From: Campylobacterales bacterium
GTDB taxonomy: Bacteria > Campylobacterota > Campylobacteria > Campylobacterales > QNZT01
Direction: 5' to 3'
Assembly: GCA_027068765.1 (NCBI GenBank)
Contig: JAMOMC010000172.1
Span: forward strand, 5,123-69,122
Length of the DNA: 64,000 nt
Shown: positions 19,039-58,187 of the stretch, one piece after another
How positions within the stretch are numbered: position 1 is the first letter of the stretch
How the letters are laid out: every line of letters starts with the position of its first letter
Made by a program: the position numbers and the translations under genes
The notes under the pieces: model-generated
What the model saw: only the letters and a program-made list of their open reading frames with translations
Databases searched by the model: none
What the model was told of the DNA's origin: nothing

Positions 19039-19424
19039 GCTATCTCCTTTTTTAACTCAATTAACTGTGAGTGTAAAGCTACTTTTGTTTTTAACTCAAT
19101 ATCTATGAATGGTTTGATAATATAATCAACCCCTCCAACTTCATATGCTTTTTGTATATCTTCTAAAGAGTCACGCCCTGATAAAAATATAATGACAATA
19201 TCTCTTGTTTGCTTATCTTTTTTTAATATTTCACACATTTCATAGCCATTCATAAAAGGCATCATGATATCTAATAAAACTATCTCAATATTGTGCTCTT
19301 TTACAAGCTTAAGTCCCATGATAGCACTTTTAGCATAAAACATTTGATGCCCGTCATTTTTGAGCATATTCATTGCCATTTGGATATTTTTAGGGGTGTC
19401 ATCTACTATTAGTATCTTGCTCAA
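19035..19424 (-). CDS. Single-domain CheY-like response regulator
   Basis: 'ILIVDDTPKN', 'LLDIMMPFMNG' and 'KPF'. 4-bp overlaps with both neighbours. Confidence 0.85.
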   Translation of the reverse strand: MSKILIVDDTPKNIQMAMNMLKNDGHQMFYAKSAIMGLKLVKEHNIEIVLLDIMMPFMNGYEMCEILKKDKQTRDIVIIFLSGRDSLEDIQKAYEVGGVDYIIKPFIDIELKTKVALHSQLIELKKEIA

Positions 19425-22400
19425 GCTTTATCCTTTTGTAAAATATTTTCTAATTTTGCTATTAGATTTGGAAAAGAGTTCATCATAAAATCTATCCTCT
19501 CTATATCAAAACTTTCACAATTTAGCTTCAACTCTTTTGCATAAGTTAATAGAAGATTGTTAGGATGCAAATTTGCTAAATCTATCAAGTTGGTGGCAAA
19601 CTCTAAAATTAGTGAAAAATCTCCCATATCTTTTATCTTAGTCCATTTTTTAATATAAACTTCTTGAAGTATTTTAACCGTTTTTGGCAAATCTACATAA
19701 GTATTTTCTTCTATAGATGCATCTTTTTTTTGTTTTAATTCATATGTATTATAAGTTAAAAATTTTGTTAATTCCAAAATTAATTCATCATATGATACAG
19801 GTTTTCTAAGATAACCATCAAATTTATACTCTTTAATTTTTTGCATATCTTTTCCCATTACTGAAGCGGTAATTGCAACTACTGGTATATCTTTTAAAAG
19901 AGAGTTTTTTTTGATAATTGATATAGCTTCGTAACCATCCATTATGGGCATTTTTATATCCATGCAGATTAAATCAACTTTGATACTTTTCAATTTCTCT
20001 AAAGCATCTTTCCCATTTTGTGCTTCATAGATTTTTAAGCCATAATTTTTAAGAGCAGATTTTATAAGTTTTCTGTTATCTTTTATATCATCTACAACTA
20101 AAATAGTTGCAGAGTTAAACTCTATACTTTCAGCTATAAATTGTGGTTGTTTTTTTTCATTTTCAATTAAACTTACAGAAATATCTTTAAGATAAACGGT
20201 AAATTTTGAGCCCTCTTTTAGCTTGCTTTGAACCTCTATATCTCCATTCATAAAGTTTAATAGTTTTTTACAAATTGTTAATCCTAATCCTGTACCTCCA
20301 TATTTTTGATTTTGTCCTTTTTGTTGCTCAAATGAGTTAAAAATACTCTTAAGATTTTTTGCATCTATACCTATGCCTGTATCTTCAACAATTAAAGCTA
20401 AATCAATCTTACTCTTTTTCTCATCATCAAATATCTTTTTTACAGATAGTTTAATAACTCCACTATCAGTAAATTTTATAGCATTTCCAATTATATTAAA
20501 TAAAATCTGTCTAATTCTAGCACTATCTAAAAGTAGATATTTAGGAATACTATCATCTATCGCAACTTCAAAATTAAGATTTTTTTGCATAAGTTTTATG
20601 GAAAATATAGACTCCATCTCTAAAACCAATTGCTTGATATTTACACTCTCTAGTATAATTTCTAATTTTCCAGCTTCAATTTTGGATAAATCTAAAATAT
20701 CATTTATAATATCTAAAAGTGCAGATCCTCCTCTTTTTATGGAGCTTAGATAATCTTTTTGTATAGGGTCTGTTATGAGTTTTTCTAAGAGGTTTGAAAA
20801 ACCAATAACAGAATTCATAGGTGTTCTTATCTCATGAGACATATTTGCTAAAAATTCTGATTTTGATAAATTTGCTAATTCTGCTTGTTTTTTGGCTTTT
20901 GATAACTCTTTTTCCATCTTCATTCTTTGAGTTAAGTCAACACCAATTGTAAGAAGAGCATCTTGACCATCATACATAATTGGTAAAATAGATATCATTA
21001 TGTTGTCAATATCTCCATTATAATTTTTTAGTTTTATAATTTTTTCTTTTACAACTCCATCTTTTTTTAAAGTCTCTATAACTTCTATTCTCTCATTTGT
21101 ATCAACATAAAACTCTAAGATATTGTAATTTTCAATATCTTCACTTGAGAGATTATAATCTTTTATAGTTTTTGGATTTGCTAAGAGTATTTTCCCTTCT
21201 ATTGTGGTTACTACAACATATAAAAGTATATTATCTATGAGGGTTCTTATCTGAGTTTCACTCTCTTTTAGTGCTATATTTAGTTTTTTTCTTTTTTTAA
21301 TTTCAGATGCAAGTTTATAATTCCATACAATTATAGCTATCAAGATAAGTAAAAAAACACCAAACAGTTGATATAAAATAGTATAATCAACATTTGTGAC
21401 AAATTCTATTTTTTGCCACCTATTAAGGTTCTCATTATTTTTAATTTCACTCATAGATTTTTCTATGAGTGATCGAAGAAAAGGTTTATCTTCGTGTATA
21501 AAAAGTGTTGACTTCATCTGTATAGAAGTTTTTCCTACAATTTTAAGAGTGTTAAAACCTTGAGCTTTGATTAAATACGAAGCGGCTGGCATAGACAATA
21601 AAATAGCATCATATTTCTCATACACTAAACCACTTAGTGCATCTTTTGGATTTTTTACCTGAATAAATGGTATATCTTTATAGTTTTCAATGAGTTTATG
21701 AGTATATCCATAATCATTTACAATAGCAATTTTTTTATCTTTTATATCTTTTAAATCATCAATAAAACTATTGTCCTCACGCATAATTATAACAATAGGT
21801 ATAGTAGAATAGGGTGTAATTGGTTTGTAGTTTTGTTTTAAAATCATATCGTCAATTTCACCAGAAATTATATCAAGTTGATGTTTTTGAGATAAATCTA
21901 ATGTCTCTTGCCAACTACTTGTAATTTTTGGTTTTATTTTTATACCAATTTTTTTCTCTAACTCTTTTAAATACTCTGCAACTATTCCAATATACTCTCC
22001 ATTTTTATTAAAAGCTTCAAAAGGGAGCCAATTTGGATTTCCTGCAAAAAAGATAGTTGGATTTTTCTCTAACCATCTCTTTTCTGCTTGAGAGAGTGAA
22101 ATTTGTTTAGATATATTTTTAAAATTCTCTTTATAAAAGAAGTCATTATCTATTTTTGGATTTTTTACCAATCCTAATTTGTAGTAAGTTTGTGCAACAT
22201 TTTGATACTTATATCTGTTTATATTACCTAGTTTTTTAAAATTTGGCATAATCATCTGATAAGTGCTTTTTGCTTCAAGTTTTAAAAGTTCTTTATCTGC
22301 TTTTGGTGCATATGTTTTTAAAATTATATCAATTATCTCATCTTGGTTTTCAAGAGCATATTCCCAACCTTTTAGAGTTGCTTTTTTCATTTTAGCAACT

Positions 22401-23068
22401 CTTTTTGGATGAGTGGATAACTCTTTTTGACTTGTAAAAAAATTATCTCCATAAAAATCAATTCCATAACTTTTTGGGTCAATTATATTGACTTTTACAC
22501 CTTTTTTAGCAAGATAAAATGGCTGTGAAGTAGTGTATGCTGAAATAGCATCAACTTTTTTATTGATTAAATCTTCATATGAGCTAAAAGGTACAATGTC
22601 TATATTTTGCAAGCTACCAATTGCATTTAAAAACATAGCATTTATTGGAGTGCCTCCATATCCATCAAAAGCATAAGAGATTTTTTTGCCTATCATTTCG
22701 TATGGTGTTGTAATTTGTGACTCATAAAGCGAGATTAAAACAAGAGGAGATTGTTGAAATATTTGTGAAATTAGTACAACATTTTCACCTTTAAGCCTAT
22801 GAATTGCAAGTGTACTATCGCTTACACCATATTGGGACTCTCCATCTAAAACTTTTTGTATAGGGCTTTTTTGAAAATCTATCTCTTTTAGTGTAACTTC
22901 GAGCCCCTCCTCTTCATAGAAACCTTTATAAATAGCAGCATAGTAGCCTGCAAATTGAAAAGAGTGTTTCCATTTTAATTCAATTGAAACCTTTTGTTTT
23001 ACGCTAATTTTTGCATTTAAAGTGGAGAAAAATAGTAAAAATGTGATGAGAATAGAAATATTTTTCAC
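19421..23068 (-). CDS. Hybrid sensor histidine kinase with two periplasmic solute-binding domains, PAS, HisKA, HATPase and REC
   Basis: Signal/TM segment, an NMT1/SsuA-like SBP ('LKWKHSFQFAGYY') and a type-3 SBP ('FFAGNPNWLPFEAF'), then TM and PAS. H-box 'MSHEIRTPMNSV', N-box 'GNAIKFT', 'DTGIGI', 'GGTGLGLTI'. REC 'VVDDIKDN...MDIKMPIMDG'. The ~130-aa C-terminal helical tail has no obvious HxxKG. Confidence 0.85.
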   Translation of the reverse strand: MKNISILITFLLFFSTLNAKISVKQKVSIELKWKHSFQFAGYYAAIYKGFYEEEGLEVTLKEIDFQKSPIQKVLDGESQYGVSDSTLAIHRLKGENVVLISQIFQQSPLVLISLYESQITTPYEMIGKKISYAFDGYGGTPINAMFLNAIGSLQNIDIVPFSSYEDLINKKVDAISAYTTSQPFYLAKKGVKVNIIDPKSYGIDFYGDNFFTSQKELSTHPKRVAKMKKATLKGWEYALENQDEIIDIILKTYAPKADKELLKLEAKSTYQMIMPNFKKLGNINRYKYQNVAQTYYKLGLVKNPKIDNDFFYKENFKNISKQISLSQAEKRWLEKNPTIFFAGNPNWLPFEAFNKNGEYIGIVAEYLKELEKKIGIKIKPKITSSWQETLDLSQKHQLDIISGEIDDMILKQNYKPITPYSTIPIVIIMREDNSFIDDLKDIKDKKIAIVNDYGYTHKLIENYKDIPFIQVKNPKDALSGLVYEKYDAILLSMPAASYLIKAQGFNTLKIVGKTSIQMKSTLFIHEDKPFLRSLIEKSMSEIKNNENLNRWQKIEFVTNVDYTILYQLFGVFLLILIAIIVWNYKLASEIKKRKKLNIALKESETQIRTLIDNILLYVVVTTIEGKILLANPKTIKDYNLSSEDIENYNILEFYVDTNERIEVIETLKKDGVVKEKIIKLKNYNGDIDNIMISILPIMYDGQDALLTIGVDLTQRMKMEKELSKAKKQAELANLSKSEFLANMSHEIRTPMNSVIGFSNLLEKLITDPIQKDYLSSIKRGGSALLDIINDILDLSKIEAGKLEIILESVNIKQLVLEMESIFSIKLMQKNLNFEVAIDDSIPKYLLLDSARIRQILFNIIGNAIKFTDSGVIKLSVKKIFDDEKKSKIDLALIVEDTGIGIDAKNLKSIFNSFEQQKGQNQKYGGTGLGLTICKKLLNFMNGDIEVQSKLKEGSKFTVYLKDISVSLIENEKKQPQFIAESIEFNSATILVVDDIKDNRKLIKSALKNYGLKIYEAQNGKDALEKLKSIKVDLICMDIKMPIMDGYEAISIIKKNSLLKDIPVVAITASVMGKDMQKIKEYKFDGYLRKPVSYDELILELTKFLTYNTYELKQKKDASIEENTYVDLPKTVKILQEVYIKKWTKIKDMGDFSLILEFATNLIDLANLHPNNLLLTYAKELKLNCESFDIERIDFMMNSFPNLIAKLENILQKDKA

Positions 23069-23103
23069 TTATACACATCCCAATCTTGAAAAATTTAATG
23101 TCT

Positions 23104-24852
23104 TTAATTTGGTATTGTACTTTTTTGACTAATTAAAGTAGCTGATGGTTCAAAAAAGTAATAGCCTTGATATTCATCTATATCAAACTCTTGTAGTTTT
23201 TCGAAAACCTCTTTTGAGTGGACAAACTCTGCAATTACTTTTATGCCTAACTCATTTGCAGTTTGAGTGATTGCTTTTACCATTGTCTGTATCTGTATAC
23301 TTTTGTCAATGTTTTTTATTAAAGAGCCATCAATCTTTAGATAATCTGGACTCGTTTGTATAATATTTCCAAAGTTTGAAAAACCGCTACCAAAATCATC
23401 AATGGCAATTTTAACTCCATATTTCCTAAATTTTTTGATAAATTTTTGCAATATTTTATAATCTTTTATATCTTCGCTCTCTACAATTTCAAAAATTAGT
23501 CTATCTCCAATATCATGGTTTTCTAATACATTTTCTATTAATGAGACTATACTACTATCAGTAAAATCACTGTATGTAAGGTTGACAGATAAGATACAGT
23601 GATTTTTGATGAGATGTTCAAGAGCTTTTTTTACCATTGTTTTTGATAGATTTGAGTACTGTTTTGTAGCAATTGCAGTATCAAGAAAAAAGTACGGGGA
23701 TACAAGAGTCTCTACCTCATTCTCTACCTCTTTTAATCGCATTAAAGCTTCATGTTTTACAATTTTGCCTTGACAATTTACAATTGGCTGAAAAACTGGG
23801 ATAATATTGTTGTTATCTAAAGCATATTGTATTTTTCTTTTCCAGCTTATTGTATTTTGCATCTTTTTTAAAGTATTCATTGAGGTTTTATAAATTATAT
23901 ATGGTTTTTTATCTGTTTTTGCAAATTTTAATGCAATATCTGCATGAGTTAAAAGATGATCTTTCTCAAATGAAACACCAATTGTTGCATCTATGTAAAT
24001 TTCCTCTTTAAGCTCTTCCATATAAAGTGGTAGATGTATTATAAATTTGCTAAGTCTTGTTATAAAGTTTTTAAATTTATCCTCGTTTTCTTGTTTACTA
24101 CAAATTGCAAACTCATCTCCTGATGTTCTATAGAGTGTATAATTTGCCCCCAAGGTGTGTACTTCTAAAATATTTGCAAACTGTCGTATAGTTACATTAC
24201 CTATATTGGTTCCATATAAATCATTTATAAATTGCAGGCGATCTATATCAATGAGAGCTAACATCTCATACTCATTTTTTTCAATATCTCTACTAAGTGC
24301 TAAACGATTTTTAAGACCTGTTAAGTGGTCGGTGTAAAGCTGCTTTTTTAGCTCATTTGTTCTTTTTTTTATCTCAACTTCTAGATGCTCATTTGATGCG
24401 ACTATTTTGGCAGTGTAAAGTTTTGAGTTTTTTTCATTATTTATATTTTTTGATATTTTATATAGTGCTTTTAGGAGTTGTTTTTCTTGCATAGGTTTTA
24501 GTAAAAAACTATCTATTCCTAAATTTATTAGTTTTAAAAGAGTTGCAGGTTCATCCTGAGCAGATACTACTGAAATATACTGTTTTATATTAATTTGATG
24601 TATTTGTTCAATCATATCTAAGCCATTTAAATTTGGCATGTTTATATCTGTTATAACTATATCAAAATAGCGATTTTTTGTATATAACTCATTTTTGTAA
24701 GCATTTAAACCTTCTTTTCCATCTGTACATAAGGTAACACTTGCAAATAGCATCTCATATAACTCAACACTCTGCTCTATGATTGATGCATCATCTTCAA
24801 CATATAGTAAGTGTAAGTTTTTGGTATAAAAATGTAGTTCTTTAAAGTCCAT
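23104..24852 (-). CDS. REC-GGDEF-EAL c-di-GMP turnover protein
   Basis: REC 'LLYVEDD...TDINMPNLNG'. GGDEF domain with variant 'SGDEF'. EAL domain motifs 'HEALMRL', 'DDFGSGFSN' and 'EYQGYYF'. Confidence 0.85.
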   Translation of the reverse strand: MDFKELHFYTKNLHLLYVEDDASIIEQSVELYEMLFASVTLCTDGKEGLNAYKNELYTKNRYFDIVITDINMPNLNGLDMIEQIHQINIKQYISVVSAQDEPATLLKLINLGIDSFLLKPMQEKQLLKALYKISKNINNEKNSKLYTAKIVASNEHLEVEIKKRTNELKKQLYTDHLTGLKNRLALSRDIEKNEYEMLALIDIDRLQFINDLYGTNIGNVTIRQFANILEVHTLGANYTLYRTSGDEFAICSKQENEDKFKNFITRLSKFIIHLPLYMEELKEEIYIDATIGVSFEKDHLLTHADIALKFAKTDKKPYIIYKTSMNTLKKMQNTISWKRKIQYALDNNNIIPVFQPIVNCQGKIVKHEALMRLKEVENEVETLVSPYFFLDTAIATKQYSNLSKTMVKKALEHLIKNHCILSVNLTYSDFTDSSIVSLIENVLENHDIGDRLIFEIVESEDIKDYKILQKFIKKFRKYGVKIAIDDFGSGFSNFGNIIQTSPDYLKIDGSLIKNIDKSIQIQTMVKAITQTANELGIKVIAEFVHSKEVFEKLQEFDIDEYQGYYFFEPSATLISQKSTIPN

Positions 24853-50645: not shown

Positions 50646-50895
50646 TATATGTGTCTGATAAGAAGTCACTTAATTTGATGTTGGTGTAAACCAATAGAGT
50701 ATTTTGTTACTTTCTTTCTTCTTATAAGTAATCATTCACAAATTTTATTTAAAATTATAACATTAAAAAATTTGATTTTTTTGATTTTCTTATATTGCTA
50801 TCGAATTTAGCTTATAAACAATATAAACTTGGAAAAACTATTTAACTTTGCAAATAATTGTGATAAAATATTTCATAGATATGCAAGGGAGAAAT

Positions 50896-52551
50896 ATGAC
50901 AAATACAGAAGTTCTACGGTTTATTATCAGTGGATTAGAAAATAGCCCTGATATTATTTGGAAAGGGGATAAGGAGCTTTTTGAGTTGATTTTTGATCCG
51001 ATTCCATATGGGAATGATATTGAAAATAGACAAAAAGAGGCAAAACAATTTATCTTCGATATATTTCAAAATGTTGGCAAGTTTGATAAAGCAAAATTTA
51101 ATAAACTTGTAAAAAATATAATCTCTGGAGGAAGTGAGGAGAGTTGTAGAAAAAAAATAGTAGCCTTTCTTCAAGAAGAGATAACACGACTAGAAATCAT
51201 AACAGATGTAGATATAGAAAAACTTGTTGAAGCACTTCCTTGTAAAGGTGATTTAGATAAAGGGCAAAAAGAGTATATCTATGATATTTTTCAATATGTT
51301 GAAAAGTTTAATAAAACAAAATTTGATCAACTTTCAAAATCTATAACTTGCGGAAAAGATGAAAAGATAGATAAAGAAGTAGTAATAACCTTTTTGCGAG
51401 AAGAGGTAACACGACTAAAAATTATAACAGATGTAGATATAGAAAAACTTGTTGAGTTTATTCCTTGTAAAGATAGTAAAGAAAAAAATTATAAGACATC
51501 ATTTTCAGGTTGGAAAAAAGAGGGAACTATTTCTAGTATAGGTTGTAAAAGAATTAAAAAAGCTCTACAGAAAAATTTTTATTTTGAAAGTGACTTATGG
51601 TCTAAAGGAGATACTTTTATAAAACAAAGATTACAAGAAGGTATAAATAAATTTATAATTGGTCCTCTTCCATTAGATCCTATAACCCCTTCTTTTACAC
51701 AAGAAGAGTTGGATGACTTATTAAATATTAGAGGTATGAAGTTACAAGAAATTAAACAATATCTAGAAGAACACCCTATTTTATCACAAAATTTTGTAGA
51801 AAAATTGATTTATATTTTATATGATAAAGAATACTATGATCTTTTAGTAGATGAAGTATTTAATAAATTTTATAAAGATGATATAGGGATTAAAAAAATA
51901 AAAGCACATGTTTGGGGTAGTGATAAAATAGGTAAATATTTAGAAGCATATTATTTACTTTCTACTATACCTTCAGACGATGATGATGAAATAGTAAATA
52001 TGAAAACTGCGGCAACCTCAAATATGAGACGACATCAGTTAAATGATGCAAAAACAGACAACAATCAAAAAAAAGAGATTATTGAAACGCTAATCTCTGA
52101 TTACAAAGAAACTTTTGAGTCTAAAGATACTTACAACTACTATCCTGGTATAAATTTAGCCTATATGTCAGTGATATCTATAGCTCTTTTTGGCAACGAG
52201 ATAAAACTAGATGATAGTATTTCTACTATTTATAATAAATCAAAAAAATCTATCGATATAGACAAAAAAAATCTTGATACTTCAAAACAATACTATGCAA
52301 ACATAACTACTATCGAGTTTATGCTACTTAACAACATTGAAAGTTTTACTGTTGAATTAGAACAATTTTTGGACTCTAAAGAGCAAACAATAATTATTAA
52401 AGGGCTACTTCAAACAAGGCGACAGATGCAGTTTTTTATCGATACTCTTGCAAGCTCTGGGATTAGTAAAAATCCTATCATCTTAAATATGCAAAAATCA
52501 ATAAAGATAATTGATGACTTTATAGATGGTTTAAAAGAATTTGAAATGTAA
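50896..52551 (+). CDS. Unknown protein A: duplicated novel N-terminal module + DUF4071/TRAF-binding-TPR-like C-terminal domain (tentative)
   Basis: ATG 50896 is preceded by AGGGAG and aligns with the paralog start 'MTN(T/S)EV'. C-terminal motifs 'YNYYPGINLAYM' and 'KQYYANITTIEFMLL'. I recognise no enzymatic motif. Confidence 0.7.
   Translation: MTNTEVLRFIISGLENSPDIIWKGDKELFELIFDPIPYGNDIENRQKEAKQFIFDIFQNVGKFDKAKFNKLVKNIISGGSEESCRKKIVAFLQEEITRLEIITDVDIEKLVEALPCKGDLDKGQKEYIYDIFQYVEKFNKTKFDQLSKSITCGKDEKIDKEVVITFLREEVTRLKIITDVDIEKLVEFIPCKDSKEKNYKTSFSGWKKEGTISSIGCKRIKKALQKNFYFESDLWSKGDTFIKQRLQEGINKFIIGPLPLDPITPSFTQEELDDLLNIRGMKLQEIKQYLEEHPILSQNFVEKLIYILYDKEYYDLLVDEVFNKFYKDDIGIKKIKAHVWGSDKIGKYLEAYYLLSTIPSDDDDEIVNMKTAATSNMRRHQLNDAKTDNNQKKEIIETLISDYKETFESKDTYNYYPGINLAYMSVISIALFGNEIKLDDSISTIYNKSKKSIDIDKKNLDTSKQYYANITTIEFMLLNNIESFTVELEQFLDSKEQTIIIKGLLQTRRQMQFFIDTLASSGISKNPIILNMQKSIKIIDDFIDGLKEFEM
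51031..51471 (+). repeat. Intragenic tandem duplication (~70-aa module x2) inside gene A
   Basis: Unit 1 (51031-51246) 'QKEAKQFIFDIFQNVGKFDKAKFNKL...TRLEIITDVDIEKLVEALPCK'. Unit 2 (51265-51471) 'QKEYIYDIFQYVEKFNKTKFDQL...TRLKIITDVDIEKLVEFIPCK'. The stretch 'ataacagatgtagatatagaaaaacttgttga' is identical in both. Confidence 0.85.
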
Positions 52552-52615
52552 ATCCAAATAATCCAATATAAAAGTGTTATGATAATATCACACAGATAAG
52601 AAATGAGGATAAAAT

Positions 52616-53265
52616 ATGACAAATTCAGAAGTTGTGCAGTTTATTATCAGTAAGTTAGAAAATAGCTCTATCACTTGGAAAGGTGACAAAGAGCTTTTTG
52701 AATTGATTTTTGCTCCAATTCCATATGGGAATGAAATTGAGAAGAGACAAAAAGAGATAAAACGATCTATTTTTGATATCTTTCAAGATATTGATAAGTT
52801 TGATAAAATAAAATTTAATAAACTTGTAAGAGATATAAGCTGTGGAGATCAAAAAAGACATAAAAAACAGATTATAACCTTTTTAGAAGAAGAGATAATA
52901 AGGCTCAAAATCACAACAGATGCAGATATAAAAAAACTTGTTTCCGTTATTCCTTGCAAAAATTCTAAAGAGAAAAACTATAGAACTCAATTTGCACATT
53001 GGAAAAAAAAAGGAGCTACTGTTACTATACATGATAGGAGTATCAAAAATGCTTTGCAGAAAAATTTTTATTTTGAAAGTGACTTATGGTCTATGGAAGA
53101 TGCAGCTATAAAACAAATATTGCAAAAGGGTATAGACACTAGAATTCTATTACTGAATTAGAACTGTTTTTGAAATTTAAGGAGAGGATAATAATTTGCA
53201 TAGAGCTAACAAAACGACAGATGAAGTTTTTTATCGATACTCTTGCAAACTCTGGAATAGGTTGA
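52616..53265 (+). pseudogene. Tandem, internally deleted and frameshifted copy (A') of gene A
   Basis: ORF 52616-53161 parallels the A N-terminus with a single repeat unit, including an identical run 'cagaaaaatttttattttgaaagtgacttatggtcta'. 53158-53265, in a different frame, reads 'LELFLKFKERIIICIELTKRQMKFFIDTLANSGIG*', matching A's C-terminal 'ELEQFLDSKEQTIIIKGLLQTRRQMQFFIDTLASSGIS'. Confidence 0.7.
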
Positions 53266-53303
53266 AATATAAAAATGTTAATATCAATACGCAAGGGTAG
53301 TAA

Positions 53304-54371
53304 ATGACAAATAATTTCTTTGAAAAACATTCTATTTTAGGGTTACAACCCGAAATCATAAAAAGTGATAAAAGCTATAGTATAGTTCTCTATGGTAACT
53401 CCCCTCTGGCTATAAAGATATTTTATCAACTTGCTATCTTATCAAATCTTCCAAATGAAAACATACTAAATTTATACCTTGTTGATTTGAAAGCTAAGAA
53501 TTTTTATAAAAAATTAAAAAAGCTTTTTAGTGGTATCAAAAAAATAACTCATCTTAATATCATAACTATAGAGTTAGATAGTAAAAATCCCAAATTTTAT
53601 ACCAACAAAATATGGCAAAAAGAGAACTTAACAAATATCATTATTGCAACACAAAATGAAAAGAAAAATTTAAAAATCAAAACAGAGCTCAAAAACTACA
53701 TATCTAGCAAAAAAACTAAAATTTTATTACCTATAGCAAGTCGAACCAATATCAACTCTAAACAAATAGCAAAATTGATTAACTACCTATATCAAGAGAC
53801 AAAATACAACCCAAATCTACTTTTTACACAAAAAGATAAAGATAAAGCAAAAACAATATGGTCAAATAAAATATTATTAAGTGATAAAAAATCAACTAAG
53901 ATGCAAAGTATTCATATAGATACAAAACTATTAACTCTTGGTTTAAAAAAACAAAAAAGCACAAAAACCCCCGAAGAACTTTTAAAAATAAATAAAGAGA
54001 TATTTGATAAAAAATTAGGGTTTAGAGAGATAGATGATCAAAAATTACAAGAGTACTCTCTGAAATTTCAAGATACTAAAAATAACTTTACAGCAATTTA
54101 CTTTCCAAAAGAGTTTAAAAGTCTATTTGAAAAGCTGATAAGAAGTGAACATAACAGATGGAACACTTATCATTATCTAAATGGTTGGAAATATAATAAA
54201 AATAAAAACAAACAACTAAAAGAACACAACTGCTTGATGCCTTTGGAAAAATTTGATAAAGAGTATCTTAAAACTACAGTGATATTTGATATATACTCTA
54301 TAGTTTATATACCAAATTTATTGGCTAGTGTTGGGGTGGAATTAGTTGATATAATGGAAAAAACACTCTAA
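53304..54371 (+). CDS. Unknown protein B: N-terminal Rossmann-like region + C-terminal RyR-like domain (tentative)
   Basis: 'SEHNRWNTYHYLNGWKYNKNKNKQLKEHNCLMPLEKFDKEYLKTTVIFDIYSIVYIPNLLASVG' fits the RyR-domain pattern (H..W......GW.Y......K.H..L.P...L......D...V..IP..L...G). RBS 'AAGGGTAG' lies upstream. Confidence 0.65.
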   Translation: MTNNFFEKHSILGLQPEIIKSDKSYSIVLYGNSPLAIKIFYQLAILSNLPNENILNLYLVDLKAKNFYKKLKKLFSGIKKITHLNIITIELDSKNPKFYTNKIWQKENLTNIIIATQNEKKNLKIKTELKNYISSKKTKILLPIASRTNINSKQIAKLINYLYQETKYNPNLLFTQKDKDKAKTIWSNKILLSDKKSTKMQSIHIDTKLLTLGLKKQKSTKTPEELLKINKEIFDKKLGFREIDDQKLQEYSLKFQDTKNNFTAIYFPKEFKSLFEKLIRSEHNRWNTYHYLNGWKYNKNKNKQLKEHNCLMPLEKFDKEYLKTTVIFDIYSIVYIPNLLASVGVELVDIMEKTL

Positions 54372-54386
54372 AAAAGGTAATAATTT

Positions 54387-54944
54387 ATGGCATACTTTCC
54401 CGCATTTATAAAACTTGACAATTTAAAAATTTTGATTATCGGTGGCGGTAATATAGCTAGTGAAAAACTTGGGCATATGTTGGATTTTACTAAGGATATA
54501 ACAGTAATATCTCCAAAACTATCAGCTACTTCAAGAGAGTTAATAAAAAAGAATTCGCTTTTTTTTATAAATAAAATTTATGAGAAAGATGATATTGATG
54601 GTTTTGCTATAGTTATCGTGGCAGTTGATGATGTGAGTGTTCAAAAAAGTGTTTATGAAGAGGCAAAAAGTAAAAAGATACTTTGCAATAGTGTTGATAG
54701 TGTGGATTATTGTGATTTTATATTTCCTTCATATATAAAAGATGGAGACTTGACAATTGCTATCTCAACCTCAGGTTCATCTCCAGCTTTGGCTAAACAT
54801 CTGCGTAAATTTTTGCAAAAGGTTATGCCAAAGTCTATAGATGATTTTTTAAAACAGATGAAAAGATATAGAGAGAGTATGCCAAAAGGAAAAGAGAGGA
54901 TGGAATTTTTGGATAAAAAGGCTAAAGATTTTTTTAAAACTTAA
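54387..54944 (+). CDS. Precorrin-2 dehydrogenase / sirohydrochlorin ferrochelatase (SirC/CysG N-terminal-like)
   Basis: 'FPAFIKLDN.KILIIGGGNIASEK', 'DFIFPS' and 'LTIAISTSGSSPALAK'. Confidence 0.8.
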   Translation: MAYFPAFIKLDNLKILIIGGGNIASEKLGHMLDFTKDITVISPKLSATSRELIKKNSLFFINKIYEKDDIDGFAIVIVAVDDVSVQKSVYEEAKSKKILCNSVDSVDYCDFIFPSYIKDGDLTIAISTSGSSPALAKHLRKFLQKVMPKSIDDFLKQMKRYRESMPKGKERMEFLDKKAKDFFKT

Positions 54945-55024: not shown

Positions 55025-56368
55025 TTGAAAAATAGAAAAACTATAATCACTTACGGAACATATGATATGCTTCATATTGGTCATCTAAATATACTAAAAC
55101 GAGCAAAAGCTTTAGGAGATTACTTGATAGTTGGAGTTACGGATGAAAATTATGACCGTTCTCGTGGAAAGTTAAATGTTTCGCAAAGTACAAAAAAGAG
55201 AGTAAATGCTATAAAAGAGTTGGATTTTGTTGATGAAGTTATCGTTGAGACTCATAAAAAGCAAAAAGCTATTGATATGATAAAGTACAATGTAGATATA
55301 TTTGCAATTGGGGATGATTGGGTTGGAGCATTTGACTATCTTAATAAATATACACATGTTGAGTATCTTCCTCGCACTGAGGGCATCTCTAGCACAAAGC
55401 TTAGAAATGAGACTTTTAAGCCTATAAAATTAGGAATTTCAGGACTTGGAAAAGAGACAGGATCTTTTATAAATGAAGCAGAGTTTGTCTCAAATATATC
55501 AATTACTAGAATTTATGATGAAGATTTATCTTCAATAAAAGAGTTTACAAAAACTTCAAATATAAAATATGGTCACGATAACTATGATGAGTTTTTAGAT
55601 ACCTCAATCACTGCTGTTTATATAAACTCATCTGTAAAAGAGCACTATACTCAGATAAAAATGGCTCTAGAAGCTGATAAACATGTACTTTGTGAAAATC
55701 CTTTGGCACTTGAAAAAGATGAGTTAAAAGAACTTTTAGCTTTAGCTAAAATAAAGAAAAAAATTCTTCTTTCAGCTTTAAGAACAGCATTTTTACCTGC
55801 ATTTAATCAACTTTTAAAAAAGATAAACAAAGGTGTAATTGGTGATATAAAAGTAGTTCGTGCAAATCGTTCTACACTTTATAAACAAAGAGATTATCCT
55901 GATGAGTTTATGAAACAAGGTGCTACAAATCTACTTTCTAGTTATCCATCTTTGTTGACTCATAAAGTTTTAGGAAAGAGTAAAGATATAAAATTTTTTG
56001 ATCAATTAGAAGAGGATTATGATATAAGTAACACTATAATTACAACTCATAAAAATGGCACTATTGGTATATCTACAATTGCAACAGGAGTAAAATTGGA
56101 AGAGAGTGCTATGATTGCAGGAACAAAAGGTTATATCTATATTCCTTCTCCATGGTGGCTTATGAAAAGTTTCTCACTTGGTTTTGAAGATGAGAGTAAA
56201 AGTGAGAAGTATGAGTATGAGTTTGAGGGATGTGGGCTTCGTTATATGATTGCAGAGTTTAGCTCTTTGATACAAAGAGGAAAGATAAAATCTAAAAAAT
56301 TAAGTGGAGCTGATATGATGAAGATAAATAGAGTAGTATTAAAATATAATGAAAAAGGAGAGAAGTAG
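55025..56368 (+). CDS. Fusion: TagD-like cytidylyltransferase + Gfo/Idh/MocA oxidoreductase
   Basis: N-terminal 'TYGTYDMLHIGHLNIL' (HxGH) and 'RTEGISSTKLR'. The C-terminal half has 'IKLGISGLGK' and 'HVLCENPLAL' (EKP-like motif). TTG start. Confidence 0.75.
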   Translation: MKNRKTIITYGTYDMLHIGHLNILKRAKALGDYLIVGVTDENYDRSRGKLNVSQSTKKRVNAIKELDFVDEVIVETHKKQKAIDMIKYNVDIFAIGDDWVGAFDYLNKYTHVEYLPRTEGISSTKLRNETFKPIKLGISGLGKETGSFINEAEFVSNISITRIYDEDLSSIKEFTKTSNIKYGHDNYDEFLDTSITAVYINSSVKEHYTQIKMALEADKHVLCENPLALEKDELKELLALAKIKKKILLSALRTAFLPAFNQLLKKINKGVIGDIKVVRANRSTLYKQRDYPDEFMKQGATNLLSSYPSLLTHKVLGKSKDIKFFDQLEEDYDISNTIITTHKNGTIGISTIATGVKLEESAMIAGTKGYIYIPSPWWLMKSFSLGFEDESKSEKYEYEFEGCGLRYMIAEFSSLIQRGKIKSKKLSGADMMKINRVVLKYNEKGEK

Positions 56369-57442
56369 ATGATATATGAGGATTATTATATATTTACTCC
56401 AGGACCTGTTAAGATGTCTAAAGAGATTTTAGAGATAGGGGCGAAGCAGACTCCGTATTTTAGAAATAGTGAGTTTTCTGATGTTACTTTTTATTGTGAA
56501 AATTATCTTTTAGAGATGCTGAATGCTCCAAAAAATAGTAGAGTTATATTTTTGACCGCATCTGGGACTGCTGGTATGGAGTCTGTGGTTATGAATTTAC
56601 TAGATGTAGATGATAATGCACTTGTTGTTAATGGCGGAGGTTTTGGTGCTAGATTTGTGGATATTTGTAATTTACACGATATTAATCATTTTAATTTAAA
56701 AGTTAAAGATACAAATCTTAGTGATATTCAAAAGATTGCTCCACAAGAAAAATTTAATTCACTTATAGTTAATGCTCATGAGACGAGTGTTGGACATATT
56801 TATGATTTAGAGGCTATTGGTAAATATTGTAAAAAAAATAATCTTTTATATATTGTAGATGCAATTAGTATGTTTGTAACAGACTCTTTAGATATGCAAA
56901 AAGATAGTATAGATGCAGTAATTGTTAGTAGTCAAAAAGCGTTGGCTCTTCCTCCTGGGCTTACTATGGTTGTGTTATCTCCTAAAGCATTAGAAAAAGT
57001 AAAAGATGTAAAAAGTTTATATTTTAATTTTAAAGATTATCTTAGAGATGGACAAAGAGGTCAAACACCTTATACTCCAGCAGTTACCATAATGCTTCAG
57101 CTTGAAGCTAGGTTAAAACAGATTCAAAAAGATGGAGGAGTTGAAAAAAGTATCAAAAAAGCTAAAAATTTAGCTGAATATTTTCGTCAAAAAATAAAGC
57201 CTTTACCACTTGTAGCCTTTTCCAAGTTTATGCCAAATGCGATGACGACCCTTGCACCAACAGATGGTAAAAGTGCTTTTAAAATAGTAGAAGATTTGGA
57301 GAAAAATTATAAGGTTATGGTCTGTCCAAATGGAGGAGAGTTAAAAGATAAAATTTTTAGAATCTCACATATGGGTGATATGGATGAGGCTTATATAGAT
57401 ATTTTAATAAATGCACTTTTTGACTATTATGAAAACAATTGA
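56369..57442 (+). CDS. Class V (AGXT/PhnW-like) PLP aminotransferase
   Basis: 'IFTPGPVKMS', 'DAISMF' and the PLP-lysine context 'VSSQKALALPPGL'. The start abuts the previous stop. Confidence 0.8.
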   Translation: MIYEDYYIFTPGPVKMSKEILEIGAKQTPYFRNSEFSDVTFYCENYLLEMLNAPKNSRVIFLTASGTAGMESVVMNLLDVDDNALVVNGGGFGARFVDICNLHDINHFNLKVKDTNLSDIQKIAPQEKFNSLIVNAHETSVGHIYDLEAIGKYCKKNNLLYIVDAISMFVTDSLDMQKDSIDAVIVSSQKALALPPGLTMVVLSPKALEKVKDVKSLYFNFKDYLRDGQRGQTPYTPAVTIMLQLEARLKQIQKDGGVEKSIKKAKNLAEYFRQKIKPLPLVAFSKFMPNAMTTLAPTDGKSAFKIVEDLEKNYKVMVCPNGGELKDKIFRISHMGDMDEAYIDILINALFDYYENN

Positions 57443-58187
57443 TGATAAAACTATAAAAAAAGCTCAACTTATCATGCTTGATATGCTGATAGAATTTGAC
57501 AAAATTTGTCAAAAGCATGAGCTTAAATACTGGTTAGATAGTGGTACACTTTTAGGGGCCATCAGACATAATGGTTTTATACCTTGGGATGATGATGTAG
57601 ATATATCTATGCCTGTGAGTGATTATAAAAAGTTTTGTGAAGTTGCAAGTGGTGAGTTAAAAAAAAGTATGTTTTTACAACACACAAAAACAGATAGTAC
57701 ATTTCCTTTTGACTATATGAAGATAAGAGATACTAGAGCTACGATTGTAGAGTTTCATGAAGAGGGTAGGGATATAAAGTACAATCAAGGTCTTTTTTTA
57801 GATATTTTCCCAATGTTAGTTATAAAAGATAGTAAGTTTCATAATTTTATTTATAGATACTCTTTTATGGTTATCAGATTTTTTTCTGCAAAAAAGTTTG
57901 AAAATAGACACATAAGAGGAGTGTTTGTAAATTTACTTCATAAGATGCATCTTGGTTTTTTAAAAAAAGATACAAAGATTATCTATGGCGGTGAGATGCC
58001 AGATGTAGCTGGAAGTTTCTCTTATGATGAGATTTTTCCACTGAAAAGAATAGAGTTTGAAGGTTTAGAGTTTTTAGCTCCAAATAGATGTGAAGATTAT
58101 CTTTTAGAGCTTTATGGTGAGGATTATATGCAATTACCCCCTTTAGAAAAAAGGAGTGTGCATGCAGTAGAGATCAAGATAACCTAA
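57429..58187 (+). CDS. LicD-family phosphotransferase
   Basis: 'YWLDSGTLLGAIRHNGFIPWDDDVDISM' is the LicD signature. An alternative ATG at 57411 is possible. Confidence 0.8.
   Translation: MKTIDDKTIKKAQLIMLDMLIEFDKICQKHELKYWLDSGTLLGAIRHNGFIPWDDDVDISMPVSDYKKFCEVASGELKKSMFLQHTKTDSTFPFDYMKIRDTRATIVEFHEEGRDIKYNQGLFLDIFPMLVIKDSKFHNFIYRYSFMVIRFFSAKKFENRHIRGVFVNLLHKMHLGFLKKDTKIIYGGEMPDVAGSFSYDEIFPLKRIEFEGLEFLAPNRCEDYLLELYGEDYMQLPPLEKRSVHAVEIKIT

Follow-up and report, generated by a model that had tools for sequence, protein, structure and literature searches.

A bacterial RyR repeat protein with a conserved ligand pocket, encoded in a two-gene cassette of a Campylobacterales genome

The 64,000-nucleotide stretch of the Campylobacterales bacterium contig JAMOMC010000172.1 analyzed here (the window) contains an open reading frame (ORF), gene B, that encodes a bacterial protein with a genuine RyR repeat domain, the domain known from eukaryotic ryanodine receptors. 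B follows gene A in a small cassette, and its relatives repeatedly adjoin genes for TIR or DUF4062 proteins, which cleave NAD+ in bacterial immunity. As judged by alignment with phage homologs, B retains their ligand-binding residues and lacks the catalytic Asp. The probable role of B is that of a sensor, within a bacterial defense module, for alarm molecules derived from NAD. The more specific proposal, that B is the soluble, noncatalytic nucleotide-sensing component of a two-gene A-B conflict or defense cassette and recognizes an ADP-ribose (ADPR)-type ligand, is offered tentatively, as somewhat short of an even chance. The features of B are as follows (hidden Markov model, HMM).

53304..54371, + strand: gene B, ATG start, 355 amino acids, C-terminal RyR domain protein
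53343..53738, + strand: B residues ~14 to 145, Rossmann-like domain, glycine loop degenerate (AlphaFold2, Foldseek, conservation)
53739..54077, + strand: B residues 146 to 258, helical middle region with invariant Q201, H204, K208, and N230
54087..54350, + strand: B residues 262 to 349, RyR (R12-type) domain (Pfam, HMM alignment to gp68, conservation)
54150-54152, 54159-54161, 54204-54206, and 54225-54227, + strand: codons of the putative ligand contacts H283, W286, K301, and H308, respectively

RyR domain, ligand pocket, and fold of B

The first-pass annotation of this DNA, which quoted residues 25 to 63 and 279 to 349 of B, had assigned the C terminus to the RyR domain, and the Pfam search confirms this assignment. 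PF02026 matches residues 262 to 320 (profile positions 8 to 66 of 91) with an E value of 2.5e-8 and a score of 34.5 bits, above the gathering cutoff of 27.4 bits, and it is the one significant Pfam domain of the protein. In a phmmer search against PDB sequences, B matched a RyR1 chimera (6UHI, 3e-9), a single-repeat protein of Bacteroides (3NRT, 4e-4), and many RyR1 and RyR3 Repeat12 and Repeat34 structures at about 5e-4. No NCBIfam model matches B.

Repeat12 (R12) of the animal receptors binds ATP, ADP, and dantrolene, and animal RyR is a reported target of cyclic ADPR (cADPR), a product of the TIR (SARM1) and CD38 enzymes. B shares with R12 a homologous repeat and the same conserved ligand residues. 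R12, however, is a tandem of two repeats within a Ca2+ channel of 5,000 amino acids, whereas B is small and soluble and has one recognizable repeat and possibly a cryptic one.

RyR repeats were orphans in bacteria until phage studies of 2026 connected them with the cADPR signals made by TIR proteins. The statement of the first-pass annotation that the bacterial function of the domain is unknown is thus partly outdated, as two independent preprints of that year describe phage RyR proteins that bind 2'cADPR, 3'cADPR, and cADPR with nanomolar affinity or cleave such signals (PMC13232231; 10.64898/2026.06.04.730250). RyDEP, which is gp78 of mycobacteriophage DyoEdafos, cleaves the 2'cADPR and 3'cADPR produced by Thoeris TIR proteins; its homologs sequester both molecules, and most of the phage RyR proteins assayed are noncatalytic high-affinity sponges (PMC13232231). 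The ligand contacts of RyDEP (H75, W78, H100, and D117) are conserved in RyR3 R12, and H75 and D117 form the catalytic dyad, with the Asp at +42 from the His (PMC13232231). RyR Tad, which is gp68 of Pectobacterium phage CB1, binds 3'cADPR at 43 nM, with 2'cADPR and cADPR as further ligands; its contact residues are H129/W132, K147/H154, and K170/D171 (10.64898/2026.06.04.730250). The pocket spacing common to the phage proteins is H, W (+3), H (+25), and D (+42) (PMC13232231; 10.64898/2026.06.04.730250).

The HMM of the B family aligns with gp68 without gaps over gp68 residues 127 to 174 (E = 1.7e-10). In this alignment, H129, W132, K147, and H154 of gp68 correspond to H283, W286, K301, and H308 of B, and these positions are nearly invariant among the 46 family members aligned (His in 45 at 283, Trp in all 46 at 286, Lys or Arg in 43 at 301, and His in all 46 at 308). 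D171 of gp68, the equivalent of the catalytic D117 of RyDEP, corresponds to T325, which is Thr in 37 of the 46 sequences and Asp in none, so that the His-Asp dyad of a RyDEP-type cADPR glycosidase was not found in B. A conserved acidic residue, D329 (44/46), sits one helical turn past T325. On the evidence of this alignment, B retains the ligand-binding residues of the phage RyR proteins without the catalytic Asp, and the Thr at that position indicates that B probably does not cleave its ligand. The shared PF02026 domain, the gap-free pocket alignment, and the H-x-x-W, K/R, and H (+25) pattern lead to the expectation of an adenine- or ADPR-type ligand for B. In other respects the proteins differ: the phage proteins are viral and form small homodimers, whereas B is chromosomal and longer and carries a Rossmann-like domain and a helical middle region in addition to the repeat.

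The AlphaFold2 model of B, which was built from the 46-sequence family alignment, is very confident (mean predicted local distance difference test score [pLDDT], 93.8; predicted template modeling score [pTM], 0.92). It is predicted to consist of three parts, namely, a Rossmann-type domain (residues ~14 to 145), a helical region (146 to 258), and the RyR repeat (262 to 349). In a Foldseek search of the model against the PDB, human RyR3 Repeat12 ranked first, the top-ranked structures being those solved with ATP, ADP, AMP-PCP, or dantrolene. The NAD-binding domains of 3-hydroxyacyl-CoA dehydrogenases followed, with E values above 0.01 (for 4j0f, probability of 1.00 and root mean square deviation [rmsd] of 3.8 Å over 140 columns). 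Every Foldseek E value for B was above 0.001, so these matches support the folds and do not prove family membership.

The N-terminal part had been described in the first-pass annotation as a degenerate Rossmann or TrkA-N-like fold lacking GxGxxG. The Rossmann-like fold without GxGxxG is confirmed: the model has beta-alpha-beta strands at residues 25 to 30, 55 to 61, 84 to 90, 109 to 114, and 139 to 141, and the sequence of the glycine loop is G31-N-S-P-L-A. The family pattern of this loop is G-x-[S/G]-x-L-A, with G31 present in all 46 sequences and position 33 being Ser in 34 and Gly in 11; D61, the acidic residue that closes beta2, occurs in only 26. The TrkA-N-like label is plausible but unproven. 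PF02254 (TrkA_N) did not match B even at an E value of ≤1, a profile of the N-terminal domain retrieved no solved RCK protein from the PDB sequences, and membership in TrkA_N is suggested by a single partial hhalign alignment with the TrkA_N domains of longer paralogs (E = 1.7e-4, probability of 50%, 29 columns). B shares a Rossmann fold with the RCK/TrkA_N domains that regulate K+ channels and transporters (as in MthK, KtrA, and TrkA) and differs from them in its loop and in the missing Pfam match.

The middle region of B is a candidate for a cryptic first RyR-like repeat with an attached linker. Foldseek aligned B with tandem Repeat12 over about 205 columns, with target-normalized TM scores of 0.43 to 0.49 and an rmsd of about 11 Å, which is an ambiguous structural signal. 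An hhalign comparison of residues 146 to 260 with residues 261 to 352 gave E = 0.67 and lends the cryptic repeat no sequence support.

Family architecture and gene neighborhoods

A word-indexed search returned 54 homologs of B. The short architecture of B is represented by nine 90%-identity clusters (347 to 378 amino acids, 56% to 100% identity), and the remaining homologs are about 600 amino acids long and align with B over their C-terminal ~370 residues, B corresponding to the C-terminal ~60% of such a protein. The additional N-terminal ~230 residues of these long forms contain two predicted transmembrane (TM) helices and an authentic TrkA_N domain, a layout also seen in RCK-gated channels, in which the Rossmann domain comes after a two-TM segment; no recognizable selectivity filter was found in this segment. 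The start of the short form coincides exactly with a domain boundary of the long form. In an exhaustive HMMER scan of 1.84 billion representative proteins, only 74 matched at an E value of ≤1e-30, almost all of them 590 to 690 amino acids long. With so few matches, nearly all of them long, the B family is rare, and its short form is a minor derived variant. A metagenome scan for further short forms yielded one extra locus.

Genome matches are mostly from Campylobacterota (Sulfurimonas and Sulfurovum), with some from Bacteroidales and Gammaproteobacteria, including Shewanella electrodiphila (strain DSM 24955, L015). The ratio of nonsynonymous to synonymous substitution rates (dN/dS) among six short-form orthologs is 0.09 to 0.22, and B is under purifying selection and is not decaying. 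No relative of the B family was found among the 2.9 million viral contigs of IMG/VR, tblastn over 50,697 phage records gave one weak match, and none of the viral predicted structures has the architecture of B.

ORFs were called in 24 related genome loci, and their large neighbors were scanned for domains. The long forms repeatedly adjoin STAND NTPases (NPHP3_N, nSTAND1, nSTAND5, and NACHT) with TPR or WD40 arrays. TIR_2 is the N-terminal domain of the neighboring NTPase in L007 and L014, and DUF4062 takes this place in L009/L028, L012, L015, L018, L024/L025, and L026; L021 has TIR as a gene of its own that overlaps the long form, with an nSTAND5 NTPase upstream. Partner-domain HMMs applied to six-frame ORFs added L004, L010, L023, L027, and five more distant loci. 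In total, a TIR_2 or DUF4062 gene, mostly fused to STAND, is present at 15 of the 26 close genome loci of the family, and in 11 loci it lies immediately downstream in the same direction, with gaps of ≤106 bp or overlaps of 1 to 26 bp. DUF4062 is a TIR-like NAD+-cleaving enzyme (NADase) that yields ADPR (10.64898/2026.05.01.722283), and the partner domains retain a conserved Glu motif. Direct homology between TIR and DUF4062 was not significant by hhalign (E = 0.062), and their relation is taken from the literature.

Several other genes stand beside the long forms. A HipA-like kinase toxin precedes them in L004 (1731-3317) and L011 (6088-7308), and a JAB-ThiF (E1-like) protein does so in L022 (5243-6649). 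L011 (9209-11269) has two tandem long-form paralogs and a TraG/VirD4-like gene, an arrangement that suggests a mobile element.

The short forms are found at the following loci, where A is the gene upstream of B in the window and A' is a second, decayed copy of A.

50848..52551, + strand: gene A, ORF from TTG 50848 (567 amino acids), likely start at ATG 50896 (551 amino acids)
52616..53268, + strand: A', decayed tandem copy of A (tblastn)
Window, L001, and L002 (P0001): A-A'-B
L054 (P0002): A-B, then a convergent homolog of the TIR_2-TM-NMT1_3 protein of L043
L055 (P0004): A-B
L046, L047, and L003 (P0005): A-B
L056 (P0003): tail of A, then B
L043 and L044 (P0006 and P0009): trypsin-like protease, B, B, TIR_2-TM-NMT1_3 protein, with further TIR, trypsin, and nSTAND1 genes nearby
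L045 (P0008): divergent TIR gene, then B and a TIR-nSTAND1-TPR gene, which overlap by 4 bp

A and B are adjacent at five of the seven distinct short-form loci, and the flanking genes are different and unrelated in each, which supports the functional link to A that had been suggested from the position of B directly after the A genes. With this link, the RyR domain, and the Rossmann fold, all three testable parts of the first-pass annotation hold, and its interpretation is supported. TIR genes adjoin the short forms at L043/L044, L045, and L054.

The TIR_2-TM-NMT1_3 protein (848 amino acids; L043 12555-15101, L044 3751-6297, and a homolog at L054 1752-3539 on the minus strand) begins with a TIR_2 domain, continues through a predicted TM helix, and ends in an NMT1_3 domain resembling periplasmic binding proteins, a topology in the style of Toll-like receptors. 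Conflict genes are densely clustered in islands at L043 and L045, which encode several TIR proteins, LpoB-like lipoproteins, nSTAND1-TPR NTPases, and trypsin-like proteases fused to Big_9, cadherin-like, or CARDB domains. The tandem short-form paralogs of L043 are 349 and 378 amino acids long and 62% identical. L001, L043, and L046, whose proteins are 100%, 68%, and 72% identical to B, come from one metagenome assembly (ENA ERZ27262665), which suggests that the cassette diversified within one microbial community.

Proposed role of B and alternative explanations

In the explanation that we tentatively favor, the RyR domain would bind a molecule containing adenine or ADP-ribose, either ADPR or a cADPR isomer that a TIR or TIR-like NADase would produce. 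The predicted binding site is the conserved pocket of H283, W286, K301, and H308, and cleavage at this site is improbable. Occupancy of the pocket would, through the Rossmann/RCK-like domain, lead to altered oligomerization or conformation, and the helical, TPR-S-like partner A would read out this change. The ancestral form would be the ~600-amino-acid protein, in which two TM helices and TrkA_N form one chain with the B module and which is presumably cotranscribed with a TIR- or DUF4062-STAND NTPase; the NADase product would trigger such a long form, which would serve as an effector at the membrane.

The organization of the long forms is like that of Thoeris (ThsB with an effector such as ThsA SIR2-SLOG or Macro-2TM), in that an NADase gene stands beside a gene joining a putative cADPR-binding domain to TM helices, which is the logic of the type II Thoeris effectors. 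Where a Thoeris effector has a signal-binding domain and a cell-killing module, the long forms have the RyR pocket and two TM helices, the latter being no more than a candidate for such a module; their NADase forms a fusion with a STAND NTPase that bears TPR or WD40 sensors, whereas ThsB stands alone. The A-B cassette of the window departs further from Thoeris, with no TIR gene in the window and no toxic module in the short B. The 29 putative Thoeris types of the systematic survey include no RyR/RCK effector in the accessible portions of its main text or supplements (10.64898/2025.12.03.692087). A RyR/TrkA partner is likewise unmentioned in the accessible portions of that survey and its supplements, of the DUF4062 literature, and of the conflict-system literature of the Aravind laboratory. 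The literature searched describes neither the cellular RCK-RyR family nor its association with TIR/DUF4062-STAND genes and A; the domain itself and its chemistry are known from phages and animals.

A broader proposal, which we regard as doubtful yet worth stating, is that bacteria have a native pathway leading from an NADase through an ADPR-type signal to a RyR domain membrane protein, with the A-B pair being a soluble offshoot acting via A. Upon infection, a TIR- or DUF4062-STAND protein would make an NAD-derived nucleotide, which would enter the RyR pocket of the cotranscribed two-TM RCK protein and lead to perturbation of the membrane.

Several observations weigh against a role of B in NAD-derived defense signaling. 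Domain identity, fold, residue conservation, family architecture, and gene neighborhoods are observed here, and the functional part of this proposal, that is, the ligand, the direction of signaling, the defense role, and the A-B interaction, is drawn wholly from gene context and from the preprints on phage homologs. Because ATP and ADP are likewise ligands of RyR R12 domains, B could bind an ordinary adenine nucleotide. Searches with partner HMMs and six-frame ORFs found no TIR, DUF4062, or STAND gene in the 64-kb window, and Pfam, PADLOC, and fold searches recognized no killing or enzymatic domain in B or A, so this locus presents neither a recognizable signal source nor a recognizable output. 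PADLOC has no model for the short or the long forms of the B family. At 11 of the 26 family loci there is no TIR or DUF4062 neighbor, and some of these loci lie amid housekeeping genes (rpoN, rpoC, and ABC transporters). Finally, the DUF4062 proteins (NIR, Swarozyc, and Evangelion) and TIR-STAND proteins (Avs/NLR-like) that neighbor most long forms are described as single-gene, self-sufficient NAD+ depleters, which can act alone.

The short form would also suit a host-encoded sponge that buffers basal TIR or NADase products and thereby averts autoimmunity or ends signaling. It has no membrane or toxic domain, it retains the binding residues without the catalytic Asp, most of the phage proteins assayed are themselves sponges, and B is tightly operonic with TIR genes at L045 and L043. 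We nevertheless consider buffering unlikely, because the dominant long form has two TM helices and RCK-type domains that a simple buffer does not need, there is no TIR in the window to buffer, and the conserved pairing with A would be left unaccounted for. The same TM segment and genuine TrkA_N domain of the long forms would be expected of a nonimmune, housekeeping RCK-type subunit that regulates, by sensing ATP, ADP, or NAD(H), an ion transporter whose gene lies elsewhere. The binding of ATP and ADP by Repeat12 (6uhh and 9l9b) and the housekeeping surroundings of some loci, including the siroheme synthase-like gene that begins 15 bp after B, agree with such a role. It is quite improbable, however, as no neighboring gene encodes a K+ transporter or channel, the TM segment has no recognizable selectivity filter, and the family is rare and patchy. 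The strong tendency to adjoin TIR/DUF4062-STAND, HipA, and toxin-antitoxin genes and the A-B flanks that change from genome to genome also argue against housekeeping.

Those changing flanks mark the A-B cassette as mobile, and B has the domain and binding residues of proven phage anti-Thoeris proteins, so that a mobile-element gene neutralizing the TIR signaling of the host or of competitors, like RyDEP or RyR Tad, may be envisaged. This explanation is poorly supported and very improbable. Relatives of B are cotranscribed with TIR/DUF4062 genes and not opposed to them, unlike the phage proteins, which oppose TIR signaling; the virus searches gave only the one weak phage match; and no phage or integrase genes flank B in the window, where the context is chromosomal. 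It is scarcely credible, and equally poorly supported, that the short form is a dead leftover of a truncated long-form gene that came to lie beside A by accident. The match of B to only the C-terminal part of the usual protein and the decay of the neighboring A' into a pseudogene would fit a partly decaying island. Against this stand the intact short forms in nine clusters, the low dN/dS, a start at the exact domain boundary, the compact and confident AlphaFold2 model, and the recurrence of A-B adjacency.

The B family is a concrete candidate for the use of the RyR fold by hosts on the receiving side of cADPR signaling. If the sensing role of B is correct, the family would constitute a new effector or sensor class in NAD-derived immune signaling, the RyR-fold sponges of phages would be explained as mimics of a host receptor, and bacteria would offer a simple model for the debated sensing of cADPR or ADPR by R12 of animal ryanodine receptors. 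If the native pathway exists, it would represent a Thoeris-like effector class not described before and a prokaryotic antecedent of animal cADPR-RyR signaling. The B protein of the window is a minimal soluble version of the family, which suits it to biochemistry.

Genes A, A', and C and the surroundings of the cassette

The database protein P0055 (551 amino acids) is 100% identical to A from ATG 50896, and this match and the start of the paralog A' indicate ATG 50896 as the likely start of A. An N-terminal unit of about 110 amino acids is present twice in A by alignment, a duplication unique to A within its family. In its AlphaFold2 model (pLDDT, 78; pTM, 0.47), A is all-alpha. Its C-terminal helical-repeat domain, which comes after the duplicated units, resembles TPR-S. 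TPR-S (PF20308), a family of sensors in NTP-dependent conflict systems, matches 14 of 15 A-family members below the cutoff (best E = 7e-5); A itself scores 15 bits against a cutoff of 27.6. A fold search with A returned only generic helical repeats of the TPR, IFIT, and Rap types (E > 0.01). As a candidate enzyme or signal generator, A is without any Pfam, NCBIfam, or PADLOC domain.

Searching A against positions 52500-53400 with tblastn gave matches of 64% and 54% identity in frame +3 and a match of 63% identity to A residues 503 to 542, with a stop, in frame +2. A' has an intact ORF of 181 amino acids (52616-53161) that corresponds to the N-terminal part of A, with 178 N-terminal codons intact. 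About 230 codons (approximately A residues 272 to 502) are deleted, a frameshift follows, and a 3' remnant (53155-53268) of 38 codons of the A C terminus ends in a stop. Judging from these alignments, A' is a pseudogene remnant and not a second partner. The same decayed state of A' is seen on the independent metagenome contig L001.

Elsewhere, A-family genes occur in toxin-antitoxin or defense islands, and those of L052, L058, and L059 have TIR genes in the vicinity. Wherever B is absent, a small gene, C (168 to 206 amino acids), overlaps the start of the A-family gene.

L048, 2288-2908: C gene
L050, 7441-7986: C gene
L052, 5075-5581: C gene
L057, 5471-6010: C gene
L058, 5447-6010: C gene
L059, 1763-2308: C gene

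The invariant motifs of the C family are GHRD, PLAxGAD, and GGTxD. C gives subthreshold Pfam matches, spanning the full profile length, to the YpsA and YAcAr families of SLOG, an assignment that neither a profile search against the PDB nor NCBIfam confirmed. If C is a SLOG protein, A would pair alternatively with a SLOG or a RyR protein.

In the window, the A-B cassette sits between mfd and the siroheme synthase-like gene, which lies in the following stretch.

54372-54944: stretch after the B stop, with a siroheme synthase N-terminal-type gene, 185 amino acids, NAD_binding_7 and Sirohm_synth_M

The B stop is 15 bp from the start of this gene, no terminator was detected, and the cassette transcript may read through into it; in a scan for promoters and terminators, the counts were no different from chance. 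The large ORFs of the window are ordinary genes, and the rest of it looks like core chromosome, ordinary signaling genes included. Among the latter is a hybrid sensor kinase of 1,215 amino acids (19421-24852, minus strand) with NMT1 and SBP_bac_3, which are two periplasmic solute-binding domains, followed by PAS, HisKA/HATPase, and receiver domains; a receiver-GGDEF-EAL protein comes next after the kinase. Positions 55025-58187 encode a fusion of a cytidylyltransferase and a GFO/IDH/MocA oxidoreductase (447 amino acids), a class V aminotransferase, and a LicD family protein, and this region looks like a locus for surface decoration (phosphocholine or similar) that is unrelated to B.

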